Origin: Candidatus Lloydbacteria bacterium
GTDB lineage: Bacteria; Patescibacteriota; Minisyncoccia; Phycocordibacterales; UBA6899
Assembly (NCBI GenBank): GCA_043719805.1
Contig: JAYSTI010000015.1
Coordinates: 4,881-68,880 of the forward strand
DNA length: 64,000 nucleotides
Direction: 5' to 3'
The position numbers were made by a program, and so were the translations under genes. The notes beneath the pieces are model-generated. The model was not told where the DNA came from and searched no databases. It was given only the letters and a program-made list of their open reading frames with translations. Below, in pieces: positions 4,544 through 64,000 of this stretch (position 1 is its first letter; every line of letters starts with the position of its first letter).

Positions 4544-4552
4544 GCGCGACAG

Positions 4553-45715: not shown

Positions 45716-46228
45716 ATGAGTTCTTTTTTACAAAAACTCAAAGGAAAGGGAATTGGAGTATCAGACGAACACACTGTTTCGACGACGAATCTTCCCGCAA
45801 AATCAGACATTCCCGCAGGCGTAACGCAACTTCCGGTTGACGTTAAGCAAGGTGACACGGAGATCACCATATACGCACAAGTACCGGGGACCGAGATCAA
45901 GGATCTCGATGTGTCTATCGAGGGGGACAATGACGTCATCACCATCCAGGGTACATCACGTCGCCCCGAGGACCTTATGCCGCATGCAGCAGAGGGCAAC
46001 GTGTCTATCAATCAGGGCGTGCAGCACGAAGAAGAGCATGACGCGTTCACGCTTGAGGAGTGTGTTTGGGGGAAATTTTTCAGACAGATTATTCTTCCTC
46101 AAGAAGTCGACGCCGCCGCCGCACAGGCAAAGGTGAAGGACGGCGTCCTCGTGCTTCATTTGCCGCTCAAGGGTCACACCTCAAATAAGTTGCGCATGCA
46201 TGTCGAACGCGTAGATTCTGCTGCATAG
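45716..46228 (+). CDS. Hsp20 / alpha-crystallin-family small heat-shock protein
   Basis: It has the ACD beta-sandwich pattern (ITIYAQVPG...DLDVSIEGDNDVITIQG...GKFFRQIILP...KDGVLVLHLP). Confidence 0.8.
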   Translation: MSSFLQKLKGKGIGVSDEHTVSTTNLPAKSDIPAGVTQLPVDVKQGDTEITIYAQVPGTEIKDLDVSIEGDNDVITIQGTSRRPEDLMPHAAEGNVSINQGVQHEEEHDAFTLEECVWGKFFRQIILPQEVDAAAAQAKVKDGVLVLHLPLKGHTSNKLRMHVERVDSAA

Positions 46229-48840: not shown

Positions 48841-49090
48841 GTATGCTCCTTGTGTGTGGTCAATGAATCTATGAAAAATCTACATAAGAAATGGCTTTTT
48901 GTCAATTTTTGAATAATAAGGACGCGCGCGCGAGGGTAACCTGTGGAAAACTTTTGCAATGAAGCAAATGTGGTGCGGTTGAGCCATTGTGCCGTACCCG
49001 ATTTTGCGTAGAAATGAGGCCATTTTTAGGCATTTTTTTGGTAAAATAACGTGCATAACCGATCCTGTTGGAGGACTGGTATTTTGTTTC

Positions 49091-52000
49091 ATGCACAATC
49101 AATTTTCATTCATTTTGAGACGCCTGAATATCAGTTTTTCCGTGCGCACGCGCCTCGTTTTTGGGGCACTCGCACTCGTCGTAACGCTGTGGGCATTCAC
49201 ACAATTTGTGCTCGCAGAAAAGGAAGCGAATGTGTATATTTTTCCGAGTGCGATGGGCAGTGACGGCTGGGAGAATGATGAGGCATCACTAATGCAAGAC
49301 CTTTCTCCTGATGCGGAGCTTGTCGATTTTACGCGTGACAATTCTTCGCAGGTATTTTTTGGAAAACCCGTTTCGACTTCTACGGTCGACACGTCCGTCA
49401 TCGAGACGCCTGCTCCTGCGCCGGCAGAGGCCCCCATTGTTGAAGTAACAACAACACCTCAATCCGATGCTCCCGCATCGGTGACTGAAACACTTCCGTC
49501 TTTTCCAAATCCATTTGTTCCGTCGGGAATAAATATTGAGACGCCTGTCGTTGCACCCATGCCTACAGTCGAAGAGACTGCGCCAAGTGGTATTCAGTCA
49601 AAAATTGAACAGACGTTACGAGATTTTTTGACGCGTGTGTGGAGTCCCCACTCAGCAATCGCATTGGAAGTGCCAACGACAACGAGTGAGATAGTGAGTG
49701 ACGCACCGAACCTCTCTCTGGTAACGGACTTATTTATTTCAAGTGGTGTCGGTTCGCTCGAAGTGCCTCCGCTTGTTGAGGGCTCGAGTGCAAGCACCGC
49801 ATCGACATCCACATTCAGCGAAATTATTATCAGTGACATCGTACCTACGGGGGACACTGCGACGACGGCCGACGCTTCTCCTCTGCCAATTTTGCCCAGC
49901 GTTGAAAGTGCAGACCCGTACACCGTTGCACTTTGTACAACGCTCGGAAAAACGTGCCACGTCATGGAGTTCGACGGGTTTGGTCTAGGCGGCGCTCTCG
50001 ACAAAAATCCTCTTCTTGGCGCGACGCTGGAAATTTCGCTTGCGGGGTCCGGCGCATTCACCACCGGCGCATATGACCGCGTTATTGTGCGCGCGTACCA
50101 TGCGGGGCATTGGCAGTTTCTTGGGTCGACGGAGTTGCGTGGAGAAGTGTCAAACGGTAAGCACGGCGGATACCGGAAATACGAACTTCCGGATATCGCA
50201 GAATGGCAAGACCTTTCGGACCTCAAGATTGTCGTCGAGTACGACCGCACGAGTGATGCGGATGCATCTGCATACGTCGACGGCATCTGGATTAATGCGC
50301 GTTACGCGAATGACGCACTTGCCGATGCTTCCGCTGAAGATGTTGCGCTCTCAGGAATGAATATTCGCAGTACGCTTCTGGCAAAGGACGCTGAAGCAAG
50401 AAAAGCACGACGCGACAGATTGATGCTTCCCGAAGGCAAAGAACTCTCCTTCGTCAACAGACAAGATTATGCAGGCGCAACGCTTTCCGTCAAAACCGAT
50501 GATGCGGTCTATCACGCACTTGGGGATGGACGTACGTATTTCAATGTGACGAACGAGAGTGCTGACCCGCAGGTGGTGCGCGTGCAGTTCCACTTTCCCG
50601 TTGAGGGTGCGAACGTGAAGTCGCTTTCTCGGTTTGCGCACAACGTTCCGTACAAAGTGGGGCAATTGAAATACAATGACATCGGATATTTTTGTGATGC
50701 AGGATGGGAGTCGGGAACTTCTCCCTCGACATTTCGTTGTGCGGTAAACGAAGAAGTGCGCTCGTGTGACCGATTGAACGATGACAAAACAAATTGTATT
50801 ACCGTCGGTGCGCGCGTCGGACTTACCGAGGGGACGGAATACCGTGACGGATGGATGGAGGCAGCACTTCGCCCGGGCTCGATTATCGATGATGCGGGAC
50901 TCTTTGCAAAGGCGGTCGATCTCCTGTTGAACCAGCTTCCACCTGACATCATGCCGTCTACCGTTCTTCCTGTCGCACATCTCGGTGACTCCGTGCTCCT
51001 TCAGCCCGGGCAGACGATGTATTTCCGTGCGGACATTACTGTTCCCTTGAACGGTCGTGGAGACTTTTTTGTGGAGGCCGCGGCACAGTCCGGAGCATAC
51101 GGATTGGTCCGTTCTGGTTGGGACGGTTCGTGGAATCATCGTGCGCATATTTCCATCGACAATGAAAACATCACTACAGACGGCACATTTGCAATTCCCA
51201 TCTCACTTGATAATGCACCGTCCGGTTTTTGGGAACACGTTTCGCGGGACGGAAGCGACATTCGATTTGTCGATGAGGCCGCTGCCGCCGAACTCCCATA
51301 CTGGCTTCAAGCTTTTGATACCGAGAAAAAGACTGGGCTAGTTTGGGTTCGTGCGAACGGGAAGGACGGAGGTGCCTCTACGACGATTGCGATGTATTAC
51401 GATTTTGCGACGACCACTTCGCGTTCGGACCCTGCGGCACCATTCCGCACCACAGAACCTGAACCGCGCGGAATAATATTTGGCGGGAGTCAGTCAGACA
51501 TGACACTCCACGTCATTGCACTCGATGACAATGTGCGCGTTCTCGCATCGGACAAACCCGAGGTTGTTTTGAAGAAGGGAGAGAGTGCACTTTTCGACGG
51601 CATGAAACCGGGAAGCGTAATTTCTGCTGACGGTCCTATCGCCGCATCGGTCGAGGCGCCGGGTGCGAATGCAATTTATGTTCCGACGGGATATGCGGGT
51701 GACGAGTTTATTATTCCCGGGATAGGAGGGGAGCGCGAGCTTTCGCTCGGTGTGACCGCACCGAACGTTACACATGCGGGGCTTGGATTCACAAACGGCC
51801 CGGAAATACTCGATCCGGTACGAGGCTCCATCGTTGGGCGCCCAATTGCTCTGGATGAAAGCGTCACACTCACCGGTTCGGGCGACATCATCCCCGTACT
51901 CGGAAGCAACAGCCAATCATTTCCTACGCCGATTTATCCTGCAACTACCGAGGAGCTTTTCGGATTCCAAGTGGGGAGGAGTGTCGTCGGCGTAGCGTGG

Positions 52001-55000
52001 GACGCAACGGCATTTACGGTGGCATGTGGAAATGGTGCACGTCAGGAAGTTGACGGAAGACGAAAGGGGATGACCGTGAAGCTTGATCACTGCGGTGCAG
52101 GCGAGGGACTTCTCTCTGATGCAGTACGTGTTATGGGTGCAAGCAATCCGATAGGCATCGTCGGCGAGGTCAACGAAAATCTCACCGTCGCCGTGCCACG
52201 CAGTGAGTTTGCTTCATCGTATCTTTCACCTTACGATGCGACGGGCGTCTCGATACTTTGTGCCGGAGAAGACGGTGCCATGGATATCGGCGTCTTCGAC
52301 CCTCAGGGCGGGATACTTGCCTCTTCGACTTGCGCAGGTGCGGGCGTGTATCCGGGCAGAACATTCATTGCTCCGGTGAAAGATATTTTTGCGGCAGGGT
52401 TTTCGGTGCGGACGATATCTTCTCTGTCGCCGCAGACATTTCTCGCAGCAATCGTTCCGAGCGTGAAGGCAAGTGTGGACGCCAAGGTGTCACACGCACT
52501 TCTCCCGCTCATTTCGCCTCAGCTTTCTCGCGTATCGGGAGCACGTCATCCCGGGGCGCAGATCGGCGAAGAAGAGTTCGTGGTTCCCGGAGAGCATCGT
52601 CGACTTGATGTTGACGCAGACGGTCGTGATAAAGATCATTTTGGTAGATTGCTTTCAAAGGATCGCGAATTTTCTATTCACCAATTACCTGCGTTCGTTT
52701 TTCAGTACAAGCGTCAGGCAAACGGATTGTTGCAGAGTGTCCGCGACGTGTTCGGGGTGAAGCCGTTCAGCGTTTCTCGCGTCGTGCTGAAGCATGCAAC
52801 CATGGGTGATATCCCCGTCAATTATGACATCAGCTACGGCAACAACAATGAATGGTCAGTTGCGCTGAAAGACATGCATGGTGCGGTGCGTCCGGGAAAA
52901 TATACGCTGTACGTTGAGATCGCGGAGGGCGGTGAGGTGTATGTTGACGAGTACGATTTTTATTGGGGGGTTCTTGCAATCAATTTCAATAAAACTGTTT
53001 TTACGGAGGGTGAGAAGGTTGCAATTTCGGTCGGCGCACTTTCAAACAACGGCAACACTATTTGTGATGCGAATGTGAAATTGTGGATTACGGACACAGT
53101 CGGCGTTGAGGATGAGGTTTTGATGACACCATCCGGACTTTGTAATGGGAACAACGTCGTCGACGTGCCGGATTATTCGGCCATGTACGCACTTCCAAAC
53201 GCGACGGGAACATATAAGGTGAAGCTCGTGCGCTTTGATCAGTACGAAAATGTTGCGAGCCAAGTAAGCGACAGTTTCGAAGTGAGGGAGAGTGTTCCGT
53301 ATTCCGTGGAGCGTGATGGTCCAACGCGCATCTATCCGCTTGCACATTACCCGATGAAGATTCGCATTCATGCAAATGAGGCATTCGAGGGGAATATCGT
53401 GGAGCGCATCCCGGGGGATTTCACTGTTATCGACAGAGGTAATGCAAATTTAGAGTGGGGCGATGCTGAGCATACGTTTATCACTGCGACATGGCCGGTG
53501 AAGCTTTCTGCGGGCGGCTCCATTGACCTGCAATATACATTTGACGCACCGGACCGCTCGCCGTTCCTTTTCTTGCTCGGGCCACTCGAGATGACGAGCA
53601 CGAGCGGTGGGACGAATTTCTCCGAGTTGAGACAGTGGCAGATTGCGTCCGATGCGGCAGGGAAGATGATTTTGTATTGGGATGGAGGCGCAGCTCCCTC
53701 GGGGTGGACCTGTGTTTCATGTTTGGGAAGCGACCCTTTTTCGTTTCGCATTGCCATGGGTTCATCAACATATGGCGGGCAAGGGGGTGCAACAACGACG
53801 ACACATACGGTTTCCGGAACAATAAATACCGCGACATCGACGGCTGTTGCGGAAAGTACCCAGAACAATTTGCTCCTTGCGGATAATTTGCACGGACATT
53901 CGGTCACTCCCAATGTTGTCGCCGCAACAAATACACCGCTTTCCAAGACACTACGCGTCATTCAGTCGACCTCGGCGGGGGAGCCACCATCATTGCCGGT
54001 GGGAGCTATTGCAATGTTTGATATTGCCTCCACCTCACTTCCGTTGACGTGGTATCGCTATGCTCCGATGGATGGGTATTACGCAATGGCTTCGACATCG
54101 GTCGGCTCGACCACTGGTGCCAATACTCATGCACATACGGTGACCGGTTCAACGTCCCCCGCAACCGGCAATGGATATCGTTCGCGTACTCCGACTATCT
54201 CCCCTCAGCCCGCACTACTCAGCCACGTCCACCGGTTTTCAACCTCAACAAACCCCACGGTAAACAATGAGCCGCCATACGTTGAGGTGCTTTATGCTCG
54301 ACTCACTGTGGCAACGACAACCTTACAGAATTTCAATGGCATGATAACGATGTGGGACAATACACCACCTGCAGGGTGGACAAATCAGTCAGACGCGGGG
54401 CAAGTCTTTGATGGAAAGTTTTTGAAGGCATCGACAACATATAGCGGCACGGGGGGTGGTACGACGCACACGCACATCGATATGAGTGGAGGAGCTGTCC
54501 AGTCGCCTGATGCGCAGGCAAATGGACGCACGCCGACTTCCCCCGTTGTTGTACAATCAGCACCGGGAGACCATTCACACGCTTTCAATCTCAGCGGCTA
54601 TTCGACTGATACGAGTTTGCCTAATTACATCGAAGTAATTTTTGCAAAGCGCTTCAGCGGAATTACTGTTTACGCACAAGACAATCATCTTTGGTATGAC
54701 AACGTAAATGCTAATACCCCGACAGACATCTGGCCTCCGGGAGGATCAACCCTTGGCGAGGGGGACGCTATTACTGTTTCAACGCAGCCGCCAATTCCGG
54801 GAAATGTGCTTCGATTGCGCATGACGTTCAACGTTACGAATGCGACAGCAACAGCATTGTCGCAGGCGTTCAAGCTGCAGTATGTTGCAGCGGACAGCGG
54901 TACCTGCGCATCGGCACTCATGTGGACCGACGTCGGGGCTATCGGCGCAGGTGGGGCACTTTGGCGGGGATACAACAATGCGGGAGTTACTGACGGAGCA

Positions 55001-58000
55001 AACCTCTCGTCATTGTTGTTGACGAATTCAAATGTCGGGGAAAGTTATACGGAGCAAAATAATTCTTCTTCAACCCCGACAGAAATTCCGCTTCTCCAAA
55101 CTGGAGAGTGGGATTGGGTAATACAGGACAATCTTGCGACAGAGGGAACAAATTATTGTTTCCGCATGGTGAAGTCGGACGGTACTCCCCTGGACACGTA
55201 TACTGACTATCCCGAGGCAATCACAAATAGTGCTCCCGACCTGCCGGTGCAAACTATTCCATTTGATAATCAAAAAGTAAGTAGCGTGACCCCCGACTTT
55301 CGATTCGTCGGCGTTGACCCTGAATTGAACGACCTCGACTACGAGATACAGATCGACACTACCGCGACGTTTACTGCGCCGTTCATCGACAAGGAGTCAA
55401 CAGCAAACCCTGAATTGTTTGACAACATCAATACTCCTGCAAATAAGGCGCCATTCTATTCCGGAGATACAATCCACTTTGCTCCAACTACCGCCCTCAC
55501 GAATGGTGTCACCTACTGGTGGCGCGTGCGCGCAAAAGATACCAATGCATCCAATACATATGGTGCGTGGTCGGCGATACAAAGTTTCACTATTGATACG
55601 AGCGTTGTTCGCACGACGTGGTTCCAGACACGACAGATACAATTTTTGAATGATACTTTTGATGGTGCGACTACGACTGGTGCGAATGATGTGCAACTTG
55701 TTGTGGGTTCATCGACGGGTTACATTTATTCACAGCCGATATACTTTAGCGTGCGCGGAGCGGAAACTGTGTGGGCGACTACCTCATGGAGTAGAGACGA
55801 AACGAACGGCACAGTACGATTGCAAGTTGAATATTATACGTCGACCAGTTCATGGGCGCTTATCCCTGATGCGGATTTGTCCGGGAATGCCGCGACTTTT
55901 GGAGGTGGGTCGAAGTCGCTACTCACACTTGATCCGAATACGTATTCAATAATTCGTCTCAAGGCTACATTGATCAACATCAGTGGTTCGCCGATACTGC
56001 AAGATTGGACCGTTTCATGGGGGTATAAGGTGGTGACTCCGACACAATATCTTCCCTTTGATAATGCGAAAGTAGGCACGACGACGCCGTCATTCGAGTT
56101 CCGCTCGTCCGACCCTCTTGGGGGAGACCTCTACTATGAAATTCAGTGGTCGACAACCTCTGCATTCACCTCTTCCACAACGCGAAATTCGCAGGCAAGC
56201 ACCACGGCATTTATAAATATTCAGAATGCCACGGACACCCAACCGTTCAATTCCGGTGACCGTATTCGCTTTACGCCATACGGGGGCGACACACTTTCTG
56301 CAACAACAACCTATTATTGGCGTGTGCGCGCGAAGGACGTCAATGGTACGAACGTCTTTTCTTTCTGGTCTTCAATCTGGAGTATCACGACCGATTCTGC
56401 GCTGACATATACGACGTGGTTTCAAACTCATGACGGGCAATTCTCGACTGACGCCCTCACGAGCATGGAGACGTTTGCATCAAATACATTGCGAGTCGCG
56501 ACGACGACCGGGGATGCGATGTTTGCGTATGCTTCAGGGGTAAATCAGGCGCCGAAGTATCGTCTCTGGGACGGTGCTTCGTGGGGTTCTTCTGCGGCAT
56601 CACTCAGCGCATCTTCCACCATCCAATGGGTAGTACTTAAGGCATCGACACTTTATGGCGAGTATCTTATGGGGACGATTGGAGCCAATAAGCATGCGAT
56701 TTTTCAGGTTTACAAAAACGGCGCTTGGGGAAATTCCTTGAGTCTTACGACGACCGTGGCGAATGTTTCGCGACGTGGAATTGCAATTGCGTATCAGACG
56801 TTATCCGGTAATGCGGTTGTCGCCGCATGTGACGGTGATGCGGACCCGAGATATGCGATATGGAACAGCACGTCATCCTCCTGGTCGGCAACGGGGACTA
56901 TCAACGTGGCAAGTGTGAACAACTGCGAGTGGCTTCGACTTGTTTCAAGTCCTATTTCAAATGAAGTCATTGTCATGGAGCGCGATACGGGTGCCGCGTA
57001 CGAGGCACAAGTGTTGAATGGGACTACGTCGACGTGGGGGAACGCAACGACGTTTGGTGGAATGACCGAAACGGGTCATGAGGGAATGGCTTTGGAATAT
57101 GAGCGAAGTGGATATCAGGCGATTGCGTTATCTTCGAGATTGAACACGGCAAATTTTGGTTGGCGTTCATGGGATGGTTCGATTTGGTCTGCCGCACTCA
57201 CGAATCAGTCAATAACCGACGACTTCGAATGGGGGAATCTTAAGGTGCCGGGTTACGCGACGGACACATTAGCACTGTGTTATGAAAATCAAGTTGACGA
57301 CCATTACGTCATTCGCTGGAATGGAGCTGCGTGGGTGGGCAATACCGTCATGACGGCAACGGGTAATACAAAAAACGACAACCGTTCGATTGACTGTGAT
57401 TATGATGCCGCAACGTCGACCGATAAGTCGAACGTTGTTGTTGCATATAGTGACACGACCAATGCGCGCTATAAGGTGTTTCAGTCGACAACAACCCCGT
57501 GGTCGTGGTGGAGCCAAGGAACTATTTCCACCATTCCTGCTTCTGCGGCGGTACAAACAGCGCGTACGCTTGGAGGAAAGATACTTGCGGTGTTTCTCAA
57601 TAAGACCGCGAAGAGTTATGACTTTTCTGCATGGAATGGTTCGACGTGGTCGACTACGCAAACACTAGAGACAACATCGTCGGTGTCCGCATCTCCATAC
57701 GCCGAGCCTTTTATGCTTGCCGCGAAAAATCCCGCAACGCAAGGCTCCGTTGTTTCTACGCAGATTAATTTTGCAGACGGACTTTCTCCTGCATGGAGGC
57801 AAGTGTTATGGAGCGCGCAAAAACCTACGGGAACCACGTTCGTTGTCCAAGTTCAATATTTGGATTCAGGAACGGGGGCGTGGACACTCATTCCCAATGC
57901 CCAGATTCCTGGAAATGACGTCGGAACAACGACCTCGCCAATCTCAATCTTAAATTTAAACACCACGACTTATGGCACGATACGACTTGTCGGTAGCGCT

Positions 58001-61000
58001 ACATGTTATTTTGGGACATGCCCGTTCCTCAATGATTGGTCTGTCGAATGGGCGCTGGGAATTCAAATTTCCGGAATAGCCCGCGCGCACGACCTCACCA
58101 CAAATGTGACATCAGGAACAGTCGCCGTTGCGGTCAACGGAGCGATTCAGACGGGTAGAACAGGAACGATAGCCGCGAACGGAAGTTGGTATATCGATAA
58201 TGTGAATGCGTTCGCGGGCAACGTAGTTACGGTGTTCATTTCGGGAGCAAATGACTTCAACGAAGCGGTTGCTGTGGCAAAATATACCGGACCCGGAGAC
58301 ATGGGCGGTATGAAGTTGAGCGAGCGGTGGCTCACGCTGGGGTCCGCATCAACTACGGGGCAGACGCTCACACTTACCGACATTGGTCGATATGATAATT
58401 CCATTTCAGCCAATGAAGATATTTTCTACGATGTCGGAGTCGGTGGAGATTATACTAATTGCGCGACAGGAGTGTGCCTCGATTCAAGTATCGATGTGTA
58501 CTCCAACACCTTCCGTCCGTCGACTTCCACGCCGCAGACAGTGAATACGTGGGACATGCGCAACGTCGCATATTTCTACGCAGATGCAAACACGGTGAAG
58601 GTGAGTGGTTCCTGGATAAACGTCGGCGGATTTACATCAAATGCTTCAACGATTATCTTCAATGCAACAAGCTCGACGCGCACCATTGATTCGACGGGTG
58701 CAGCGACCTCAACGTTCTTTAATGTGACATTCGGCGAGAGTGGAAACGTCGCAACGTGGGGATTGTCCAGTGCGTTCACTGCAACGGGAACAGTCTCTAT
58801 GAATTTTGGTACGACTTCACCGGGGACCTCCGCGATGACGCTTCAGGGTGACCTCTCAATCGGGGCGTCCGGGACATTCTTGAAGGGGACCGCGACGACG
58901 ACCTTTTCCGGAGCATTGTCAAAAACGTGGACAGACAGCACGGCATCGAAGCAGGACCTCGGAAATATTTTAATCGATGGAACAGCAAAGACATTAACAC
59001 TGGGTTCGTCTGTGAGGGCAAGTGCAGTGAAGATCGGCGCCGACGACATACTCAACGCCGGAGGAGCAAATACGATGACTGTTTTGGGCTTCTGGGAGAA
59101 TCTCGGAACATTCACTGCGCAGACGGGGACCGTGACATTCGCCACGACGACGGCAAGTCTTTCAATTAACCAAGGTATTTCAGATTTTTACAATCTTACA
59201 TTTAATGGCTCCGGCGGGTCATGGCGGTGGTTGAACACCAATGCAACCGCAACTGCTAATGTGACAATTACCGTCGGCACCGTCACCCTCCCCGGGGGAA
59301 CTCTTGCAGTCGGTAGCTCGTTTGATAACTCCGGCGGTACATTCGTGAATAGCAGTGGTGCAATCAAGTTTACTTCGACAGCGACGGGGAGAAATGTTCG
59401 ATTCAACGGCTCCAATGCTTCCACGCTTTTGTTTTCGGGTACTGGCGGTGGATGGACATTCCTTGATGCAAATGCGACTGCAACACAGGACGTCTTTATT
59501 ACTGCAGGTACGCCAACATTCCCAAGTGGTACGCTTGAAGTAGGTCGCGATTTCTTGAATCAAAGCGGAGCATTCACGGCCAACGGAGGCACACTCAAGA
59601 TGACGTCGACCTTGTCGGGTCGGTCCATCACCTTGTTTGGTTCTTCGCTCGCGTCGCTGCTTATTGCTGCCGCCGGCACCTTTACCATCACCGACACCAA
59701 CGCAACTGCAACCGCAGATGTCATGTTCGCCGCCGGAACGACGGTGTTCCCATCCGGAACGTTTGCCATCGGTGGGTCATTCACAAATAGCGCGGTGTTT
59801 ACGGCAGGAAGTCAGGTTGCATTTAATGCTTCATCGGGAACGAAGCTCGTCAATCCCGGTAGTTCATCGTTTGTGAACGTAAGTGTCAGGCCTTCAACCG
59901 GCGCGACCACAACTATCACAGCGAATGCGACCACGACGGGCACATTCACACTCGTCTCCGGCAATTTCTCGCAGACGACGGGAACCGCACTTGCCGTAGG
60001 CGGCGCCTTCACCAATCAGACGGGAGGTGCTGCGACGACGTGGACCGGCTCCACGCTTTCGCTCAATTCTGGTACGTCATTCACATTGAATACGAAGACG
60101 TTGGGTGGTGATGCATATGCAACAATGCGGCTCGTGGCAGGCACGAACATTCGCATGTGGGGCTCTTCCGTCAGCACCTACCAGCTCGCCAGTTTCTCCT
60201 CGATGTATTCCCAGAATAACGTGGGGATAAGCGGGGCGCTTCTCATTGCAGGGGACTACGCGCGTACGAGTGGAACGGATTATTGGGATTACGCAACCGA
60301 TTTTGACGGGACAGCATTAGGAGGAAGTTCGCGACAGGTAAATGTGCGCTTTACGCCGAATGCGACGACAACCTTTACCACTGGCGCCATCCTCAGCATT
60401 GTCGGCACTTCGACTGCAACGACAACCATAGACCGACAGACGACCGGCAGTTTCGCGATCTCGCTTGCGAGTACGACACTGAATGCCTCGTACTATCAAT
60501 TCCGAAACATGAATTCTTCCGGACTGAGTCTTTCCGGCTCCACGACCATCACATCGCTTTCTTACGGTGATTTTGAGGTCGCAACCGCGGGGGGTAGTGC
60601 GCTTACCATTGCGTCGACGACAGTGACGCATAACTCCGGATTACAAATATTCAACGTGCGTTTTGCGACAACGACCGCCATCTCCGCATTCAATGTGACC
60701 GAAGTGGGTACGCCGACTTCAGTGTCGTCATACATCCGCTTCAAACAACACTACGGAAATCTTGCCGGTGAAGGATTTGACGTCGATCCGGGAGGGAATC
60801 CGGGATACATCCGGTGGGATGATAGTTTGTTCGTCATTTCCATTTCGGGAACGGTTTATACTACTGCGCTTACGCCAATGGGTGCACCAACGTGTAACGA
60901 TGTAACGCCGAATGTGCGCGTGAAGGTTGACGGCTTGGGGAATTTTACTGCGGTATGTAGTTCTGTAGACGGCACATTTACTGTTCCGGGCGTTACCTTT

Positions 61001-64000
61001 ACCGGCGATACGGTCATGACGGTGTATCTTGATACAGGAGGAGCAGCTAAGGCCGTTTGGGTGACGAGGTCAGCCGCCGCCAGTCTTTCGGGCGTTAAGC
61101 TGTATCAGAATCGCGTCATTGTCAGTCATGAGGACGTCACTCCGCTCACGATCGCGAACATGAACGCCTACGATGGAGGGGACGATGCGGACATTCCGTT
61201 TGTGGCGACGCTCGGATCTCCAAATACGCTTACGGTAAATCCGGAGATGGAGTTTTGGGTATGGACCGGGAAGACGTTCATTCCCGGAGGAAATATCACA
61301 CTCAATTCGGGGGGCTCCGGAAATAATTGGGATGGTGCATTCCACATCGATAACAGCTCGACTTTCACCGCGCAGGGGACGGAGTCACATTCGGTCGGGG
61401 GCAAATGGACCGCAGATGCCGGTGCGACATTCACTGCTGCTTCGTCGACATTCATCTTTACTGCAACCACATCGGGAAAGGCAATCACCGCAATCGTACC
61501 AATCACATTCTGGAATACAACGTTCAACGGCACGGGGGGAAATTGGTCAGTGAACCAGACCGTGAACGTCGGAAACAATTTCGTTGTTACGGCAGGAACA
61601 GTTTCGGGTGCAAGTTCTATTAACGTAACCGGAACGAGTGCAAGCGGGAACGGAGTTGTTGCGATGACGGGTGGGACGTTCTCCCTGTTCTACGGCGGAA
61701 CATTTGGAGGAACGTCAGACTGGAGTTTCAATAATCTTACCTTCGGTACCGGCACGGTGGCGACAACAACAAAGACTGCTTCTTCGACGGTGACGGTGTC
61801 GAGTGTATTGACCGTTGCAAGTGCCCATGTATTTCTTGCGGGTAGTCCGTCGACGTGGAATTTGACCGGCGGCGGGACTCCGTTCGTTCAAAGTGGTACG
61901 TTCGACGCACAGACGAGCATCTTCAGATATAGCAGTAATGCGGCGACGAACATCACGCCCGCAACGTATCATCGCCTCTATCTTGCACCGAGCGCGTCGG
62001 GTGGTCCGACGTATACATTTTCGAGCGGTACGTTCACCGTGAACAATAATTTGAGTATTGGTGACGGAGTAAACACCGCGACGGTGACGGCGACGACCAA
62101 TGACCCGATTCTCAATGTGCTTGGGGATATGTTCATTCGCGCGACTACGACATTTATCGCGTCAGATAGTGCGGCTCTAAACGCGTCGCGTGACTTTGTA
62201 AACGCAGGGCTCTTCACGAGCTCAGGTGGGACCGTCAACTTTATTGCAACAACAACCGGACGCTTTGTTACGACTGCGTCTTCGTCGTTTGCCAACGTGA
62301 ATTTCAACGGCGCGGCGGGAGGATGGACGATAACGGGGAATGCAACGTCGACAAGTAATTTCTCTCTCACTGCTTCGTCACAATTTACGATGGCGTCGGG
62401 TACAACACTTGAGGTGAAGGGGGTATTTACCAATGCCGTGGGTGGCACTGCAACGACGTGGACAGGCACAACGCTCTACATGAACTCCGGCGCCACATCC
62501 GCACTCAACGCGAAGTCTGTGTTGGGGGATCAGTATGAGACGCTGAACGTCGCCGCAAGTACTGCAATTAGTATGTGGAACTCAGCTGCAACCTCGACGA
62601 GCATCAACGCGAGTGGAAGTTTGTATTCACAAAACCACGCGTCGACGACCGGCTTACTGTACATATTCGGAGCATACGCACGCTCATCCGGAACGGACTA
62701 TTGGAGTTACGCAAATAATTTCGATGGAACCGCGCTTGGGGTAGCGAGTCGTCGCGTTGATGTGCGTTTTGCCTCTGCGACAACGATGACGGTATCGGGT
62801 ACCGGAGGACTTGAGGTGATTGGTATTTCAACTGCATCGACGACGCTCGATGTGCAGTCTTTGGGTACGTACGCCATGAGTTTTTCAGGTGGCTCGTCGA
62901 CGATGCGGTATTTGAATGTTCGTGGAGTCAATGGCAACGGTTTTAATTACTCCGGCACAACACTGGCGAATGATCTCTCGGATGCCGATTTTCTTCTGCA
63001 GGTGGACGGGGGAAGTATGATTACCGTCGCAGGAGGGACGATCGACGTGAACCCGCTCAAGATCTTTTCACGAAACTATTTCAGCACCACGACGGGTATT
63101 GTCTCTGGGTATAACGTGAAGGCGACCGGTGTTTCCGGATCAATCTGGCGTTTCTCCGGAACTCCCGCCTTGTACGGAAATTATTCCGGAGAGGCCCGTG
63201 ATTCCGACCCAGGAGGCGACCCGGGGTACATTGTGTGGGATGACTCTGCGAACAACGTTACAATTTCAGGAAATGTGTACGGCGACGAAGGGGTTACTCC
63301 TATCGGTGGACCGACATGTAACGGTGTTACGCAAAACGTACGACTCAAGGTGCAAGGGGCAGGTACCTATACCTCGGCTTGTAATGCGGTATCGGGAGCA
63401 TTTTCAATCTCATCTGTCGTGTTTAATCCCGGAGACACACTCACGCTCTATCTCGACACTAATAGCACTACGTCTGCGGCGAATATTTCCGTTGATCCGA
63501 CAACGAACATCAGCAACATGCATCTGTATCGCGATCGCGTCATTCTCCGTCACGAACAGGGAAGTCCGATGACTATCGCTGCAATCGATTTGTACGACGG
63601 CAATCAGGACACCGATATCGCAGTCCAGGCATCGCTCGGCGCTCCAAATATTCTCATTGTTCGCGCAGGCACAAAAATTATCGTCTGGACCGCGAAAACA
63701 TTTACGCCGGGAGGAAACGTAACGATACACGGAAATGCCGCAAGTGGCATTGACGGCACGGTCGAGCTTCAGGCGACGTCGACGTGGGCATCAACGGGCT
63801 CGGAAACGCACACATTGGCAGGGCAGTTCCTTGCGCAGTCCGCCGCTACTGTTGTTCCCGCAAGTTCCACGTTCATATTCTATGCAACGACGACGGGAAA
63901 GTACATTGCGGCATCGTCATCGCTTACGTTCTATAATCTCACCTTCAGTGGCGCTTCCGGAGGTTGGGATATCGGCGGCGTTGGTACTTCGTCCAACGAT
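49091..64000 (+). CDS. Giant surface protein of at least 4,970 aa, 3'-truncated at the window end. It was missed by the ORF track because it has no in-window stop. Its modules are: a signal anchor; a Pro/Ala-rich linker; tail-collar-like HxH modules; a WRGY domain; FN3-like domains; long parallel beta-helix repeat tracts; and a tandem super-repeat of about 2.4 kb.
   Basis: I translated this frame codon by codon from the ATG at 49091 to 64000, which is 14,910 nt or exactly 4,970 codons. I met no stop. The protein is coherent throughout, with repeated motifs such as TYYWRVRAKD and FxNLTFxGxGGxW. It shares a domain with the ORF at 17521..22842. The N-terminus is MHNQFSFILRRLNISFSVRTRLVFGALALVVTLWAF. 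Confidence 0.75.
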   Translation, partial: MHNQFSFILRRLNISFSVRTRLVFGALALVVTLWAFTQFVLAEKEANVYIFPSAMGSDGWENDEASLMQDLSPDAELVDFTRDNSSQVFFGKPVSTSTVDTSVIETPAPAPAEAPIVEVTTTPQSDAPASVTETLPSFPNPFVPSGINIETPVVAPMPTVEETAPSGIQSKIEQTLRDFLTRVWSPHSAIALEVPTTTSEIVSDAPNLSLVTDLFISSGVGSLEVPPLVEGSSASTASTSTFSEIIISDIVPTGDTATTADASPLPILPSVESADPYTVALCTTLGKTCHVMEFDGFGLGGALDKNPLLGATLEISLAGSGAFTTGAYDRVIVRAYHAGHWQFLGSTELRGEVSNGKHGGYRKYELPDIAEWQDLSDLKIVVEYDRTSDADASAYVDGIWINARYANDALADASAEDVALSGMNIRSTLLAKDAEARKARRDRLMLPEGKELSFVNRQDYAGATLSVKTDDAVYHALGDGRTYFNVTNESADPQVVRVQFHFPVEGANVKSLSRFAHNVPYKVGQLKYNDIGYFCDAGWESGTSPSTFRCAVNEEVRSCDRLNDDKTNCITVGARVGLTEGTEYRDGWMEAALRPGSIIDDAGLFAKAVDLLLNQLPPDIMPSTVLPVAHLGDSVLLQPGQTMYFRADITVPLNGRGDFFVEAAAQSGAYGLVRSGWDGSWNHRAHISIDNENITTDGTFAIPISLDNAPSGFWEHVSRDGSDIRFVDEAAAAELPYWLQAFDTEKKTGLVWVRANGKDGGASTTIAMYYDFATTTSRSDPAAPFRTTEPEPRGIIFGGSQSDMTLHVIALDDNVRVLASDKPEVVLKKGESALFDGMKPGSVISADGPIAASVEAPGANAIYVPTGYAGDEFIIPGIGGERELSLGVTAPNVTHAGLGFTNGPEILDPVRGSIVGRPIALDESVTLTGSGDIIPVLGSNSQSFPTPIYPATTEELFGFQVGRSVVGVAWDATAFTVACGNGARQEVDGRRKGMTVKLDHCGAGEGLLSDAVRVMGASNPIGIVGEVNENLTVAVPRSEFASSYLSPYDATGVSILCAGEDGAMDIGVFDPQGGILASSTCAGAGVYPGRTFIAPVKDIFAAGFSVRTISSLSPQTFLAAIVPSVKASVDAKVSHALLPLISPQLSRVSGARHPGAQIGEEEFVVPGEHRRLDVDADGRDKDHFGRLLSKDREFSIHQLPAFVFQYKRQANGLLQSVRDVFGVKPFSVSRVVLKHATMGDIPVNYDISYGNNNEWSVALKDMHGAVRPGKYTLYVEIAEGGEVYVDEYDFYWGVLAINFNKTVFTEGEKVAISVGALSNNGNTICDANVKLWITDTVGVEDEVLMTPSGLCNGNNVVDVPDYSAMYALPNATGTYKVKLVRFDQYENVASQVSDSFEVRESVPYSVERDGPTRIYPLAHYPMKIRIHANEAFEGNIVERIPGDFTVIDRGNANLEWGDAEHTFITATWPVKLSAGGSIDLQYTFDAPDRSPFLFLLGPLEMTSTSGGTNFSELRQWQIASDAAGKMILYWDGGAAPSGWTCVSCLGSDPFSFRIAMGSSTYGGQGGATTTTHTVSGTINTATSTAVAESTQNNLLLADNLHGHSVTPNVVAATNTPLSKTLRVIQSTSAGEPPSLPVGAIAMFDIASTSLPLTWYRYAPMDGYYAMASTSVGSTTGANTHAHTVTGSTSPATGNGYRSRTPTISPQPALLSHVHRFSTSTNPTVNNEPPYVEVLYARLTVATTTLQNFNGMITMWDNTPPAGWTNQSDAGQVFDGKFLKASTTYSGTGGGTTHTHIDMSGGAVQSPDAQANGRTPTSPVVVQSAPGDHSHAFNLSGYSTDTSLPNYIEVIFAKRFSGITVYAQDNHLWYDNVNANTPTDIWPPGGSTLGEGDAITVSTQPPIPGNVLRLRMTFNVTNATATALSQAFKLQYVAADSGTCASALMWTDVGAIGAGGALWRGYNNAGVTDGANLSSLLLTNSNVGESYTEQNNSSSTPTEIPLLQTGEWDWVIQDNLATEGTNYCFRMVKSDGTPLDTYTDYPEAITNSAPDLPVQTIPFDNQKVSSVTPDFRFVGVDPELNDLDYEIQIDTTATFTAPFIDKESTANPELFDNINTPANKAPFYSGDTIHFAPTTALTNGVTYWWRVRAKDTNASNTYGAWSAIQSFTIDTSVVRTTWFQTRQIQFLNDTFDGATTTGANDVQLVVGSSTGYIYSQPIYFSVRGAETVWATTSWSRDETNGTVRLQVEYYTSTSSWALIPDADLSGNAATFGGGSKSLLTLDPNTYSIIRLKATLINISGSPILQDWTVSWGYKVVTPTQYLPFDNAKVGTTTPSFEFRSSDPLGGDLYYEIQWSTTSAFTSSTTRNSQASTTAFINIQNATDTQPFNSGDRIRFTPYGGDTLSATTTYYWRVRAKDVNGTNVFSFWSSIWSITTDSALTYTTWFQTHDGQFSTDALTSMETFASNTLRVATTTGDAMFAYASGVNQAPKYRLWDGASWGSSAASLSASSTIQWVVLKASTLYGEYLMGTIGANKHAIFQVYKNGAWGNSLSLTTTVANVSRRGIAIAYQTLSGNAVVAACDGDADPRYAIWNSTSSSWSATGTINVASVNNCEWLRLVSSPISNEVIVMERDTGAAYEAQVLNGTTSTWGNATTFGGMTETGHEGMALEYERSGYQAIALSSRLNTANFGWRSWDGSIWSAALTNQSITDDFEWGNLKVPGYATDTLALCYENQVDDHYVIRWNGAAWVGNTVMTATGNTKNDNRSIDCDYDAATSTDKSNVVVAYSDTTNARYKVFQSTTTPWSWWSQGTISTIPASAAVQTARTLGGKILAVFLNKTAKSYDFSAWNGSTWSTTQTLETTSSVSASPYAEPFMLAAKNPATQGSVVSTQINFADGLSPAWRQVLWSAQKPTGTTFVVQVQYLDSGTGAWTLIPNAQIPGNDVGTTTSPISILNLNTTTYGTIRLVGSATCYFGTCPFLNDWSVEWALGIQISGIARAHDLTTNVTSGTVAVAVNGAIQTGRTGTIAANGSWYIDNVNAFAGNVVTVFISGANDFNEAVAVAKYTGPGDMGGMKLSERWLTLGSASTTGQTLTLTDIGRYDNSISANEDIFYDVGVGGDYTNCATGVCLDSSIDVYSNTFRPSTSTPQTVNTWDMRNVAYFYADANTVKVSGSWINVGGFTSNASTIIFNATSSTRTIDSTGAATSTFFNVTFGESGNVATWGLSSAFTATGTVSMNFGTTSPGTSAMTLQGDLSIGASGTFLKGTATTTFSGALSKTWTDSTASKQDLGNILIDGTAKTLTLGSSVRASAVKIGADDILNAGGANTMTVLGFWENLGTFTAQTGTVTFATTTASLSINQGISDFYNLTFNGSGGSWRWLNTNATATANVTITVGTVTLPGGTLAVGSSFDNSGGTFVNSSGAIKFTSTATGRNVRFNGSNASTLLFSGTGGGWTFLDANATATQDVFITAGTPTFPSGTLEVGRDFLNQSGAFTANGGTLKMTSTLSGRSITLFGSSLASLLIAAAGTFTITDTNATATADVMFAAGTTVFPSGTFAIGGSFTNSAVFTAGSQVAFNASSGTKLVNPGSSSFVNVSVRPSTGATTTITANATTTGTFTLVSGNFSQTTGTALAVGGAFTNQTGGAATTWTGSTLSLNSGTSFTLNTKTLGGDAYATMRLVAGTNIRMWGSSVSTYQLASFSSMYSQNNVGISGALLIAGDYARTSGTDYWDYATDFDGTALGGSSRQVNVRFTPNATTTFTTGAILSIVGTSTATTTIDRQTTGSFAISLASTTLNASYYQFRNMNSSGLSLSGSTTITSLSYGDFEVATAGGSALTIASTTVTHNSGLQIFNVRFATTTAISAFNVTEVGTPTSVSSYIRFKQHYGNLAGEGFDVDPGGNPGYIRWDDSLFVISISGTVYTTALTPMGAPTCNDVTPNVRVKVDGLGNFTAVCSSVDGTFTVPGVTFTGDTVMTVYLDTGGAAKAVWVTRSAAASLSGVKLYQNRVIVSHEDVTPLTIANMNAYDGGDDADIPFVATLGSPNTLTVNPEMEFWVWTGKTFIPGGNITLNSGGSGNNWDGAFHIDNSSTFTAQGTESHSVGGKWTADAGATFTAASSTFIFTATTSGKAITAIVPITFWNTTFNGTGGNWSVNQTVNVGNNFVVTAGTVSGASSINVTGTSASGNGVVAMTGGTFSLFYGGTFGGTSDWSFNNLTFGTGTVATTTKTASSTVTVSSVLTVASAHVFLAGSPSTWNLTGGGTPFVQSGTFDAQTSIFRYSSNAATNITPATYHRLYLAPSASGGPTYTFSSGTFTVNNNLSIGDGVNTATVTATTNDPILNVLGDMFIRATTTFIASDSAALNASRDFVNAGLFTSSGGTVNFIATTTGRFVTTASSSFANVNFNGAAGGWTITGNATSTSNFSLTASSQFTMASGTTLEVKGVFTNAVGGTATTWTGTTLYMNSGATSALNAKSVLGDQYETLNVAASTAISMWNSAATSTSINASGSLYSQNHASTTGLLYIFGAYARSSGTDYWSYANNFDGTALGVASRRVDVRFASATTMTVSGTGGLEVIGISTASTTLDVQSLGTYAMSFSGGSSTMRYLNVRGVNGNGFNYSGTTLANDLSDADFLLQVDGGSMITVAGGTIDVNPLKIFSRNYFSTTTGIVSGYNVKATGVSGSIWRFSGTPALYGNYSGEARDSDPGGDPGYIVWDDSANNVTISGNVYGDEGVTPIGGPTCNGVTQNVRLKVQGAGTYTSACNAVSGAFSISSVVFNPGDTLTLYLDTNSTTSAANISVDPTTNISNMHLYRDRVILRHEQGSPMTIAAIDLYDGNQDTDIAVQASLGAPNILIVRAGTKIIVWTAKTFTPGGNVTIHGNAASGIDGTVELQATSTWASTGSETHTLAGQFLAQSAATVVPASSTFIFYATTTGKYIAASSSLTFYNLTFSGASGGWDIGGVGTSSND
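60240..64000 (+). repeat. Diverged tandem super-repeat of about 2.4 kb per copy within the giant ORF. Copy 2 continues beyond the window.
   Basis: Copy 1 (about 60240..62640) and copy 2 (62640 onwards) are collinear segments: YAR(T/S)SGTDYW.YA..FDGTALG...R.V.VRF...PGG(N/D)PGYI.WDDS...ISG.VY...TP.GGPTCN.VT.NVR.KV.G...LYLDT. Confidence 0.65.

Follow-up and report, generated by a model that had tools for sequence, protein, structure and literature searches.

A Parcubacteria-type gene for a giant, probably membrane-tethered protein with an HxH triple block and β-helix super-repeats

Extent and conservation of the giant gene

The window, by which we mean the whole 64,000-nt stretch of DNA that was analysed, ends within a very long open reading frame on the plus strand. 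The following features were located in this part of the window:

45716–46228, plus strand: HSP20 gene (Pfam); the corresponding gene precedes the orthologue in GCA_002451235.1, with 71% identity
46258–47757, plus strand: gene for a cohesin-like 499-aa protein (Pfam); it likewise precedes the GCA_002451235.1 orthologue, with 53% identity
48961–49090, plus strand: conserved upstream region, from an alignment to the corresponding stretch in two orthologues
49039–49047, plus strand: extended −10-like element TGGTAAAAT, from the upstream alignment; putative promoter element
49070–49075, plus strand: ribosome-binding site GGAGGA, 15 nt 5' of the ATG
49091–64000, plus strand: giant ORF without a stop, also found on an identical Logan contig and colinear with the orthologue P0087

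Frame 2 of the plus strand is free of stops from 48983 to 64000 (15,021 nt), the preceding stop lying at 48980–48982. From the ATG at 49091 to the window end it encodes 4,970 amino acids, with the 3' part of the gene outside the window. This confirms the reading in the earlier note that the frame is open from 49091 to the last base, no in-frame stop being found up to 64000. The probability that 5,007 random codons contain no stop is (61/64)^5007, or approximately 1e-104, at about 50% GC, indicating that the open frame did not arise by chance. The ATG at 49091 is the conserved start, and both the ATG and the 'MHN' start of the protein are kept in an orthologue (L002). The earlier note had suggested extending the contig to find the stop codon. 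A public Logan contig, read to window-equivalent 57757, shares 21.5 kb with the window and is identical to it throughout that length. On this contig the gene is called as a 6,242-aa product with a GTG start equivalent to window 49142. The full gene encodes approximately 6,242–6,259 aa over about 18.7 kb, and ends near window-equivalent 67,870, about 3.9 kb past the window. The orthologue P0087 (6,229 aa) is colinear with the window protein and runs 1,293 aa longer. The window thus holds the first 80% or so of a genuine gene, whose product has about 6,250 residues. The final 1,290 residues or so, as well as the downstream operon, lie outside the window and are known from orthologues.

The giant ORF is missing from the ORF track of the window because the lister omits ORFs truncated at the edge of the source sequence, in keeping with the earlier claim that an ORF caller needing a stop would miss the gene. 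A practical lesson is that dropping edge-truncated ORFs left a quarter of the window seemingly empty. The description of the gene as unreported holds for this ORF track only, since the identical public contig already carries the gene call. One large protein database gave only fragments of the giant-protein family, these being shorter than about 1,900 aa.

The gene is real and conserved. Several full-length orthologues of about 5,500–6,500 aa, with 38–64% identity, are colinear with it without frame breaks, the full-length proteins of 5,515–6,229 aa being colinear at 36–49% identity. A nine-sequence alignment contains hundreds of invariant columns. At approximately 20 metagenome loci with GC contents of 41–61%, the frame stayed open over all of the 10 kb preceding the match and ended about 3.8 kb after it; relatives in the metagenome collection were at most 78% identical. 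No 20-mer is repeated within the gene and the DNA identity between its super-repeats is negligible. The best homologue (61% identity) is from Parcubacteria group bacterium GW2011_GWA2_47_7, the closest named relative and the one relative present in the genome collection. Its orthologue is split by frame changes, so that an intact gene is not indispensable in every lineage. This split region, along with the general proneness of repeat-rich genes to misassembly, might be taken to suggest an artefact, whether through chimerism or collapse of the assembly, through sequencing errors that joined several genes into one long ORF, or through a pseudogene in decay that by chance contains no stops, but such an explanation is effectively refuted by the identical independent assembly, the absence of repeated 20-mers and of appreciable DNA identity between super-repeats, the uninterrupted architecture in about 20 loci and eight full-length proteins of differing samples and GC, and the approximately 1e-104 chance of a stop-free run of this length.

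Other homologues carry the names Kaiserbacteria, Minisyncoccia, Parcubacteria, Patescibacteria and Saccharibacteria. Scanning the window with Rfam and for tRNAs yielded no rRNA or tRNA marker, so the assignment to Patescibacteria/CPR rests on the names of homologues. The earlier guess of a CPR lineage fits with the closest of these, named Parcubacteria, Kaiserbacteria, Minisyncoccia and Patescibacteria.

The gene also has a conserved neighbourhood, with the order HSP20, cohesin-like protein, giant gene, multi-FN3 protein, ABC ATPase and MacB/FtsX permease. The downstream FN3, ABC ATPase and MacB/FtsX genes were found at 22–23 loci and in GCA_002451235.1, and the adjacent transporter in orthologous loci consists of an ABC ATPase and a MacB_PCD/FtsX permease. 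The window also has a dockerin-bearing gene about 7 kb upstream, and another is found downstream of the orthologue.

Domain organization of the protein

Based on the translation, internal similarity and comparison with orthologues, the part of the protein encoded in the window was divided as follows:

49148–49216, plus strand: N-terminal hydrophobic helix, aa ~20–42 (Kyte-Doolittle)
49373–49960, plus strand: low-complexity P/T/S/A/E-rich linker, aa ~95–290 (composition of the translation)
49961–52540, plus strand: variable N-terminal region, aa 291–1150 (coverage and identity profile of orthologues)
51248–51445, plus strand: DUF2341 copy 1, aa 720–785 (Pfam)
52688–53590, plus strand: conserved β-sandwich region, aa 1200–1500, present in all orthologues
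53657–54661, plus strand: three tandem HxH units of ~108 aa, aa 1523–1631, 1636–1741 and 1749–1857
54668–55240, plus strand: β-sandwich domain, aa 1860–2050, invariably present after the HxH triple
55244–56497, plus strand: FN3-like 1 (aa 2052–2203), module X1 (aa 2210–2314) and FN3-like 2 (aa 2317–2469), from internal repeats
56498–57745, plus strand: Trp-rich region, aa 2470–2885, with seven repeats of Y.(I/V)W.G..W (alignment)
57743–58063, plus strand: module X2, aa 2885–2991, a paralogue of X1 with 34% identity to aa 2210–2314
58064–60781, plus strand: β-helix super-repeat 1, aa 2992–3897 (internal similarity), kept across orthologues
60782–63205, plus strand: super-repeat 2, aa 3898–4705, in which an Ig-like head precedes a long right-handed parallel β-helix
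63206–64000, plus strand: super-repeat 3, aa 4706 onward, ~45% identical to the start of super-repeat 2; the window ends inside it

Of the Kyte-Doolittle peaks of the window protein, only that of the N-terminal helix has a helix-like profile, and a single N-terminal hydrophobic peak is also found in seven of the eight full-length orthologues. The helix is a signal anchor or, if cut after VLA/EKE, a signal peptide. The linker that follows is the least conserved part of the protein among orthologues (10–27% identity). Both elements had been proposed in the earlier note as a hydrophobic anchor and a low-complexity linker, and both were borne out, as was its suggestion of FN3-like units: two 'YYWRVRAKD'-type modules (aa 2052–2203 and 2317–2469) are present with 43% identity to each other, and aa 2349–2432 match Ig_Rha78A_N (PF25788) with 34.9 bits against a curated cut-off of 27.4 (E 1.9e-8). 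The only other Pfam match in the whole window protein, when the Pfam search proposed in that note was run, was to DUF2341 (PF10102) at aa 720–785, which scored 47.8 bits (cut-off 23.4; E 2e-12). A second copy of DUF2341 occurs in the C-termini of orthologues (E 1e-17 to 1e-23) as well as on the identical contig. In the orthologues, the C-terminus is made up of the completed super-repeat 3, DUF2341 copy 2 and then β-sandwich domains.

Sequence variation is unevenly distributed over these modules. The segment at aa 800–1150 is found in only a minority of orthologues, and the Trp-rich slot, which differs between lineages, is occupied in some family members by an unrelated module. The Trp-rich region may form a β-propeller, this being a guess from its sequence pattern; its profile had no match among PDB sequences. 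Within the conserved β-sandwich region, aa ~1297–1392 are weakly MG2-like (α2-macroglobulin type), and the homologue P0049 has an MG2 match in the aligned stretch (E 1e-5) that lies below the curated cut-off. The β-sandwich domain of aa 1860–2050 is also found in the 1,773-aa ORF of the window. A profile of the C-terminal ConA/LamG-like region gave no match among PDB sequences, and the label 'LamG' for this region is a guess. Nothing usable was obtained when the Trp-rich tile, the N-terminal tiles and the MG-like tile were searched against Pfam, and the whole protein had no matches to PDB sequences, NCBIfam or PHROGs. Approximately 90% of the protein is without a Pfam, NCBIfam, PHROG or PDB sequence match.

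The super-repeats account for the C-terminal part of the window protein. Comparison of aa 3543–4154 with aa 4346–4961 gave about 45% identity at an offset of about 806 aa (2.4 kb), in agreement with the diverged super-repeat of about 2.4 kb in the earlier note, and the β-helix repeats predicted there were matched by the β-helix fold found for the super-repeat. Super-repeat 1 is the longest, owing to additional coil sub-repeats of about 77 aa. The best structural matches of the β-helix were to adhesins and tailspikes, with polysaccharide lyases and depolymerases also ranking high. Polysaccharide lyases and depolymerases are also built on the β-helix fold.

The HxH triple block

The HxH triple at aa 1523–1857 is the most distinctive part of the protein, and the module is undescribed. 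It does not figure in the earlier note. The second HxH of each unit (H1601/H1603, H1712/H1714 and H1828/H1830) is invariant across the 21 sequences aligned, and the corresponding H80/H82 of the unit profile do not vary in any of 33 units. In the window protein, the first HxH of unit 1 has degenerated to THTV. The cores of the units were predicted by AF2 at pLDDT 85–96. As determined with an HMM of the unit, every complete protein contains three or six units. The module is present in 4,306 cluster representatives, its hosts including giant fibres, small CPR surface proteins of 600 aa, and other giant proteins. Stand-alone homologues such as P0042 and P0039 have 583–607 aa.

We also examined the relationship of the unit to known structures. 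The unit profile (33 sequences), when compared with PDB sequences, matched 9qgo_A (E 3e-5), 9nxk_A (E 0.0027) and 6ov6_A (E 0.98), all of which belong to three-chain entries, and in 9QGO and 9NXK, the homotrimeric fibres Pvc13 and Pa223 gp60, it is the C-terminal portion that is matched. None of the 33 units matched Pfam Collar (PF07484) at E <= 1, tblastn with the module found nothing in 50,697 phage genomes, and chain-by-chain structure searches with the units gave no structural match. HHalign against T4 gp12 aligned 21 columns only, with a probability of 28%, and against T4 gp37 it gave nothing, at a probability of 0.6%. A gp37-needle-like iron-binding array was dropped on account of the null result with gp37 and the restriction of the gp12 match to a 21-column motif; a remote relationship of the collar/short-fibre type is preferred.

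HxH motifs of T4 fibres bind metal on the trimer axis. In the giant protein the domain is not a homotrimer; the three units would most likely pack into a single-chain equivalent of the trimeric tip domain of phage and PVC tail fibres, and their occurrence in strict sets of three or six fits such a single-chain pseudo-trimer. Packed in this way, histidines from all three units would together hold one metal ion. The HxH block is found in the N-terminal third of the chain and phage fibres carry the HxH domain distally. This position away from the distal end raises the possibility that the block may act as a structural clamp instead of a receptor-binding tip. We also put forward, tentatively and as something closer to a conjecture than an expectation, that the block is a domesticated, triplicated and fused phage tip, forming a pseudo-trimer that needs no trimerisation chaperone and having spread as a mobile recognition cassette (three units plus the β-sandwich), and that the fibre, together with the MacB/FtsX-type ABC system, could serve as a device for host recognition which the transporter actively handles, by energising or releasing it. 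If this were the case, the fibre would not be a passive adhesin.

Proposed role and comparison with known systems

The single N-terminal helix, the β-helix matches to adhesins and tailspikes, and the surface-protein and MacB-type neighbours suggest that the protein is displayed at the cell surface. We propose that this Parcubacteria-type gene encodes a membrane-tethered surface fibre of about 6,250 residues that most likely serves attachment to, or recognition of, a host, a partner cell or a surface, and place the probability of this reading at roughly 0.7. The earlier description of a secreted or surface multi-modular protein is thus supported, whereas its adhesin function we infer. According to this proposal, the protein would be exported by Sec and tethered to the cytoplasmic membrane by its N-terminal helix; the disordered Pro/Thr/Ser-rich linker would cross the wall, and the chain of β-sandwiches together with three β-helix rods of about 800 residues would project the protein outward as a long fibre. 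Candidate binding parts are the two DUF2341 domains (concanavalin-like), the C-terminal β-sandwiches, the lineage-variable Trp-rich repeats and the HxH block. The HSP20, cohesin-like and multi-FN3 proteins and the MacB/FtsX-type ABC system may be made and handled along with the fibre, a role for the ABC system being conjectural.

The protein might instead be structural, an S-layer-like component or wall-spanning scaffold that provides a protective fibrous coat without a specific partner. It is huge, repetitive, rich in Thr, Ser, Ala and Gly and membrane-anchored, the neighbouring cohesin-like gene and the dockerin-bearing genes hint at assembly of a scaffold, and a thick fibrous surface layer has been described on CPR cells (PMC8080830). 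We consider this unlikely, however, as this 6,000-aa protein is encoded by one gene copy and shows no sign of domains that would form a lattice, while the lineage-specific module swaps (Trp-rich region, aa 800–1150) are more typical of binding specificity, to which the tail-fibre-like module also points. The high rank of lyases and depolymerases among the β-helix matches raises another alternative, that of a giant surface-tethered enzyme in which the β-helix super-repeats, like those of phage tailspikes, would be lyase or depolymerase domains that break down the capsule or wall of host or prey cells, and the other modules would bind carbohydrate; we regard this as improbable.

How ultrasmall CPR bacteria find and hold their hosts is poorly understood, with suspicion falling mainly on giant surface proteins. 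One widespread family now gains a concrete anatomy, with lengths of 5,500–6,500 aa and with domain order and flanking genes that stay constant in dozens of samples. Parts that can be tested are the compact, confidently predicted 340-residue HxH module with its six invariant histidines, the lineage-variable Trp-rich cassette and the conserved MacB-type partnership.

Several known systems share features with the protein. The β-helix adhesins (the two-partner-secretion exoproteins HMW1/FhaB and EtpA; the autotransporter passengers Vag8, Hap, Pet and Ag43; the binding region of the serine-rich-repeat protein SRRP of L. reuteri) have the right-handed parallel β-helix in common with it, but at sequence identities of only 5–15%, and the protein described here is anchored through its N-terminal helix. 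CPR cells, to our knowledge, have no outer membrane. An exoprotein of the TPS or autotransporter type was rejected, as Pfam found no TPS domain or β-barrel translocator in the window protein and four orthologue C-termini. The giant RTX/T1SS adhesins (LapA, SiiE, MpIBP) are likewise repetitive proteins of several thousand residues with an adjoining ABC transporter; this class was rejected since no RTX family was detected by Pfam in the window protein or the orthologue C-termini and the protein has no C-terminal secretion signal, has an N-terminal signal anchor, and is accompanied by MacB/FtsX rather than HlyB/HlyD/TolC. Also rejected were an LPXTG sortase-anchored adhesin, based on the C-termini of the orthologues L008 and P0087, which are β-sandwich without LPXTG or a hydrophobic segment, and a polymorphic toxin, the protein having no toxin or Rhs domain and ending in β-sandwich domains. 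With the fibre tips of phages and PVC (Pvc13, 9QGO; Pseudomonas phage Pa223 gp60, 9NXK; T4 gp12) the HxH unit shares the motif order 'G-M-I-x-M-F/W ... P-x-G-W', HxH, '(I/L)-P-P-Y', but here three diverged copies are found in one chain, in a cellular protein and far from both of its ends.

The closest comparison is with the giant proteins of Patescibacteria. CPR giant membrane proteins, including those of Vampirococcus, have been proposed to form a fibrous host-contacting surface (PMC8080830), FhaB and/or DUF2341 were found in 82 of 149 Patescibacteria proteins larger than 4,000 aa (PMC11809585), and epibiotic growth of a Saccharibacterium requires adhesins (PMC10633639). The giant DUF2341/FhaB proteins resemble the protein described here in exceeding 4,000 aa, in carrying DUF2341, in their predicted membrane or surface location and in their proposed role in adhesion or host interaction; its length, DUF2341 and lineage place it in the giant DUF2341 class, with FhaB not detected by Pfam. 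This class is already noted in the literature, whereas the family that combines the HxH triple, three β-helix super-repeats and the MacB-type operon is not described in PMC11809585 or PMC8080830, which give only counts and domain labels. The new details are the fused-trimer module and the MacB-type operon.

Open reading frame and orthologues of the giant gene

The earlier note had proposed an unreported giant ORF in frame 2 of the + strand that stays open to the window end. The last stop in this frame lies at 48980-48982 and the frame is then stop-free to base 64000 (15,021 nt), which bears out the claim with zero stops across 48983-64000. From the ATG at 49091, from which residues are numbered, the ORF encodes 4,970 residues before being broken by the window end, and Thr, Ser, Ala, and Gly make up 43% of the translated part. 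The probability of 5,007 codons without a stop at ~50% GC is about 1e-104. Only short antisense ORFs appeared in the six-frame track because the ORF lister drops ORFs that run off the source. As regards that lister the gene was indeed unreported, but it had already been called on a public Logan contig (SRR23617209_106736, 46,332 nt) that is identical base for base to window 36258-57757. This call is 6,242 aa long with a GTG start at window 49142, and the end of the gene is therefore expected ~3.87 kb beyond the window. Judged from sequence, the ATG at 49091 is a better start than the GTG; the 17 residues separating the two are kept in a relative ('MHNQ...' versus 'MHNR...'), and 5' of the ATG lie GGAGGA (49070-49075) and a conserved TGGTAAAAT (49039-49047). 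The giant gene contains no repeated 20-mer and DNA identity among its super-repeats is almost nil, so that a collapsed-repeat assembly, a possibility raised in the earlier note, is not a concern.

The last 500 residues of the window protein, used to scan metagenomes, recovered 25 loci at 40-78% identity. In approximately 20 of these (GC 41-61%) the frame is open across the whole 10 kb 5' of the match and reaches a stop ~3.8 kb 3' of it, the distance expected from the 6,242-aa call. Alignment of nine metagenome ORFs revealed hundreds of invariant columns. An exhaustive profile search identified P0087, a protein of 6,229 aa (NCBI GCA_002451235.1) that shares 49% identity with the window protein and is colinear with it over residues 43-4970; it runs 1,293 residues past the cut end of the window protein. 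Seven further full-length proteins, of 5,515-6,510 aa, have the same domain order as the giant protein. The giant ORF is a real gene, and an artefactual origin is effectively excluded. The exhaustive representative library included family members of 5,500-6,800 aa; the word-indexed protein database returned family fragments of less than ~1,900 aa only, and the identical 6,242-aa product was absent from its results. Giant proteins can be systematically invisible to word-indexed search. Among named organisms, the closest relatives are Parcubacteria group bacterium GW2011_GWA2_47_7 (61% protein identity), Kaiserbacteria, Minisyncoccia, and 'Patescibacteria group'; the window contains no rRNA, tRNA, or Rfam feature and thus no independent lineage marker.

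The GW2011_GWA2_47_7 orthologue is split over several ORFs (loci L002 6440-6640; L005 ~4510 and ~6252; L003, L004). A loss of ~34 codons with a frame shift, relative to window aa ~1351-1388, closes an ORF of 1,386 aa; homology resumes in a different frame, and a second contig adds two frame changes. The first break looks real rather than a sequencing error because the 200 nt around it are identical in two independent Logan assemblies. The broken orthologue could be a pseudogene, a split gene, or a case of recoding.

The non-coding region 5' of the giant gene (window 48961-49090) is strongly conserved in the relative at 61% protein identity, and the orthologue at 49% still shares the blocks TGTGGAAAACT, TGCGGTTGAGC, CCATTTTT, and TG.TAAAAT. 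This suggests a conserved promoter or leader, one unflagged by a generic sigma-70 promoter scan. The interval separating the cohesin-like and giant genes contains a minus-strand ORF (48277-48840, 182-187 aa) with a promoter-like site on its own strand (48905-48877) and a terminator-like hairpin (48261-48237). It is also called on the identical Logan contig, and the relative has a 140-aa minus-strand gene at the same position.

Domain organization

Modules of the giant protein within the window (residues; all + strand)
~20-42: hydrophobic helix, the sole one in the window protein (hydropathy)
~95-290: Pro/Thr/Ser/Ala/Glu-rich stretch, lowest conservation in the protein
291-1150: variable region (conservation profile)
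720-785: DUF2341 (PF10102) copy 1 (Pfam, E 2e-12)
1200-1500: β-sandwich region, weakly MG2-like (MG2 match of a homologue)
1523-1857: three HxH units, tandem repeats of ~108 aa (alignment)
1860-2050: β-sandwich constantly accompanying the HxH units
2052-2203 and 2317-2469: FN3-like modules 1 and 2 with a 'YYWRVRAKD' motif (43% mutual identity)
2210-2314 and 2885-2991: two smaller paralogous modules (internal repeats)
2470-2885: Trp-rich region with seven Y.(I/V)W.G..W repeats (alignment)
2992-3897, 3898-4705, and 4706 onward: three super-repeats (internal similarity)

All structural statements of the earlier note held, namely an N-terminal hydrophobic anchor (the single helix), a low-complexity linker (aa ~95-290), FN3-like units (two modules, one matching Ig_Rha78A_N, PF25788, at E 2e-8), β-helix repeats, and a diverged super-repeat of ~2.4 kb (super-repeats 2 and 3 share ~45% identity at an offset of ~806 aa). 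Its overall interpretation of a multi-modular surface protein is likewise supported. From aa ~1200 to the end, identity is 30-60% in all full-length members. In the orthologues, the sequence beyond the window consists of the remainder of super-repeat 3, a second DUF2341 copy (E 1e-17 to 1e-23), a conserved Trp/Cys-containing region, ConA/LamG-like in appearance, one additional β-sandwich, and Ig-like domains. The hydrophobic segment of full-length orthologues is likewise single and N-terminal; at the C-terminus neither a hydrophobic or membrane segment nor an LPXTG motif was found. The repeats of the Trp-rich region suggest a propeller, and this region has no PDB or Pfam match.

Modules vary among family members. 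Locus L011 has unrelated sequence (19% identity) in place of the Trp-rich region (window 56498-57745), alignment over this region is reduced in L026, L013, and L028, and only about a quarter of full-length orthologues have aa 800-1150 (window 51488-52540). These differences resemble the cassette swapping of receptor-binding proteins.

The HxH block

Each HxH unit follows the pattern M-I-x-(M/F/W)-(W/F)-D ... P-x-G-W ... G-x-T-G-G-x-x-T-H-T-H ... (variable loop) ... H-T-H ... N-x-P-P-Y-x-x-V-I-x-A-K. The second HxH of every unit is invariant in 21 homologues (H1601/1603, H1712/1714, and H1828/1830), and across 33 single units only its two histidines and one proline are invariant; the first HxH of unit 1 in the window protein is degenerate (THTV). 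In AlphaFold2 predictions the unit cores reach pLDDT 85-96 and show an identical six-strand order in each unit, and the loops joining the two HxH motifs, variable in sequence, are of low confidence. A single-unit profile searched against all PDB sequences gave three matches, each a three-chain fibre: 9qgo_A 'Tail fiber protein' (E 3e-5), 9nxk_A 'Tail fibers protein' (E 0.0027), and 6ov6_A (E ~1). The alignments place the same motifs in the C-terminal regions of these fibres. Pvc13 of a Photorhabdus virulence cassette (9QGO) has a C-terminal region described as homologous to phage short-tail-fibre host-binding domains, and for gp60 of Pseudomonas phage Pa223 (9NXK) the tip has been described as T4 gp37-tip-like.

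In all sets examined, the number of units in a complete protein is always three or, as two triplets, six, a rule that spans giant orthologues, stand-alone proteins of 583-607 aa, and giants of very different architecture; counts of two occur only in sequences ended by a contig or locus boundary. Read most simply, the three units would co-fold as a single-chain equivalent of the phage-fibre trimer, in which case the invariant histidines would meet on a pseudo-threefold axis. Further independent tests left this reading no stronger. The Pfam Collar model does not match the units, tblastn of the module against 50,697 phage genomes gave no match, and HHalign aligned the opening motif alone to T4 gp12 (aa 340-361, probability 28%) and nothing to T4 gp37. 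The kinship with phage fibres is therefore remote, supported by one profile search and by motif order. Given its position in the N-terminal third of the chain rather than at the distal end, the block may serve as a stabilising clamp and not as a receptor-binding tip.

The module has a wide distribution: 4,306 cluster representatives match it at E <= 1e-3, and 987 still do at E <= 1e-30. Together with its β-sandwich the triple forms a portable cassette, carried among others by P0031 and P0033 (about 900-920 aa). Proteins of ~600 aa that have a hydrophobic segment at the N-terminus (P0039 and P0042, 583-607 aa; loci L031, L032) carry it alone, a protein with the label Candidatus Saccharibacteria carries it twice, giving six units, and it is also found in very different giants, P0074 (5,808 aa) and P0171 (6,807 aa), which have many N-x-S/T sequons and DUF2341-like segments.

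Genomic context, proposed fibre, and known systems

Neighbours of the giant gene and of its orthologues
5' in the window: TldD/PmbA pair
45716-46228, +: HSP20 (Pfam)
46258-47757, +: cohesin-like protein of 499 aa (Pfam)
3' of orthologues: ~500-aa protein with several FN3 domains (23 of 23 related loci)
3' of orthologues: ~440-aa ABC ATPase (22 related loci)
3' of orthologues: MacB_PCD/FtsX permease (13 related loci)
3' of orthologues: ~600-aa protein with no Pfam match (some related loci)

The orthologue in GCA_002451235.1 is also preceded by HSP20 (71% identity) and the cohesin-like protein (53%). By analogy with the related loci, we infer that the FN3, ABC, and MacB-type genes lie past the window end in this genome. 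MacB/FtsX-type systems such as FtsEX, LolCDE, and MacB pass ATP-driven motion to extracytoplasmic partners; that such a system handles or energises the fibre is possible, though entirely speculative.

Other features of these loci were noted. At L036, the GCA_002451235.1 locus, the ABC ATPase 3' of the orthologue is called as pieces of 79 and 262 aa (22476-23475), and tblastn finds the normally ~440-aa sequence over residues 144-439 only; its nucleotide-binding N-terminus may be lost or frameshifted. A dockerin-bearing Ig-domain protein is encoded at window 40172-41920, ~7 kb 5' of the giant gene, and another dockerin-bearing protein 3' of the orthologue at L036 27836-28867. With the cohesin-like protein immediately 5' of the giant gene, they hint at a surface assembly of cohesin-dockerin type in these CPR genomes; the giant protein itself showed no dockerin. 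A second surface-gene cluster without Pfam matches (ORFs 15734-17524, 17521-22842, 22852-24207, and 24230-25615; also 36174-37316) has modules in common with the giant gene and with the operons of stand-alone HxH proteins. The post-HxH β-sandwich reappears in its 1,773-aa ORF (aa 1196-1417, E 1e-21 to 1e-25), and the C-terminus of the 596-aa ORF matches genes of 217-229 aa positioned after stand-alone HxH proteins. Its proteins of 451, 461, and 380 aa match L031_334 (E down to 5e-36) and have a signal peptide, β-rich ectodomain, transmembrane helix, and charged tail. A DDE-family transposase (12812-13651, − strand; DDE_Tnp_4, E 2e-15) indicates at least one mobile element in the window.

In the picture with best support, the protein would be exported by Sec and stay tethered by its N-terminus as a fibre. 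After a flexible linker would come β-sandwich beads and three β-helix rods, and these would hold several putative binding modules off the cell. At ~25 coils of ~0.48 nm per super-repeat, each rod would measure very roughly 12 nm, and the whole fibre, other domains included, several tens of nanometres; fibrous gaps of 20-100 nm around a CPR epibiont are of comparable scale (PMC8080830). A rival to the tethered fibre is a non-specific envelope scaffold. Another takes the β-helices as enzymatic depolymerases, but the giant protein showed no match to a catalytic family and the top structural matches of the β-helix are adhesins.

The tethered fibre is proposed to work in the same way as β-helix adhesins. 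It differs from the TPS, autotransporter, RTX/T1SS, and LPXTG families, whose defining secretion and anchoring features are absent from the giant protein. We found no description of the family architecture, the fused triple HxH module, or the MacB-type operon in the open-access literature, absence from which is no proof of novelty; the fused triple HxH structure is a proposed, testable sub-feature of the giant protein. That CPR bacteria carry giant surface proteins is already recognised. In Vampirococcus, giant membrane proteins have been linked to the fibrous surface of the cell (PMC8080830), and epibiotic growth of a Saccharibacterium requires adhesins (PMC10633639). A survey identified 149 Patescibacteria proteins of > 4,000 aa, 82 of them with FhaB and/or DUF2341, and proposed a role in adhesion or host interaction (PMC11809585). 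By its length, DUF2341 domain, and lineage, the giant gene belongs to this class of giant DUF2341 proteins of Patescibacteria.
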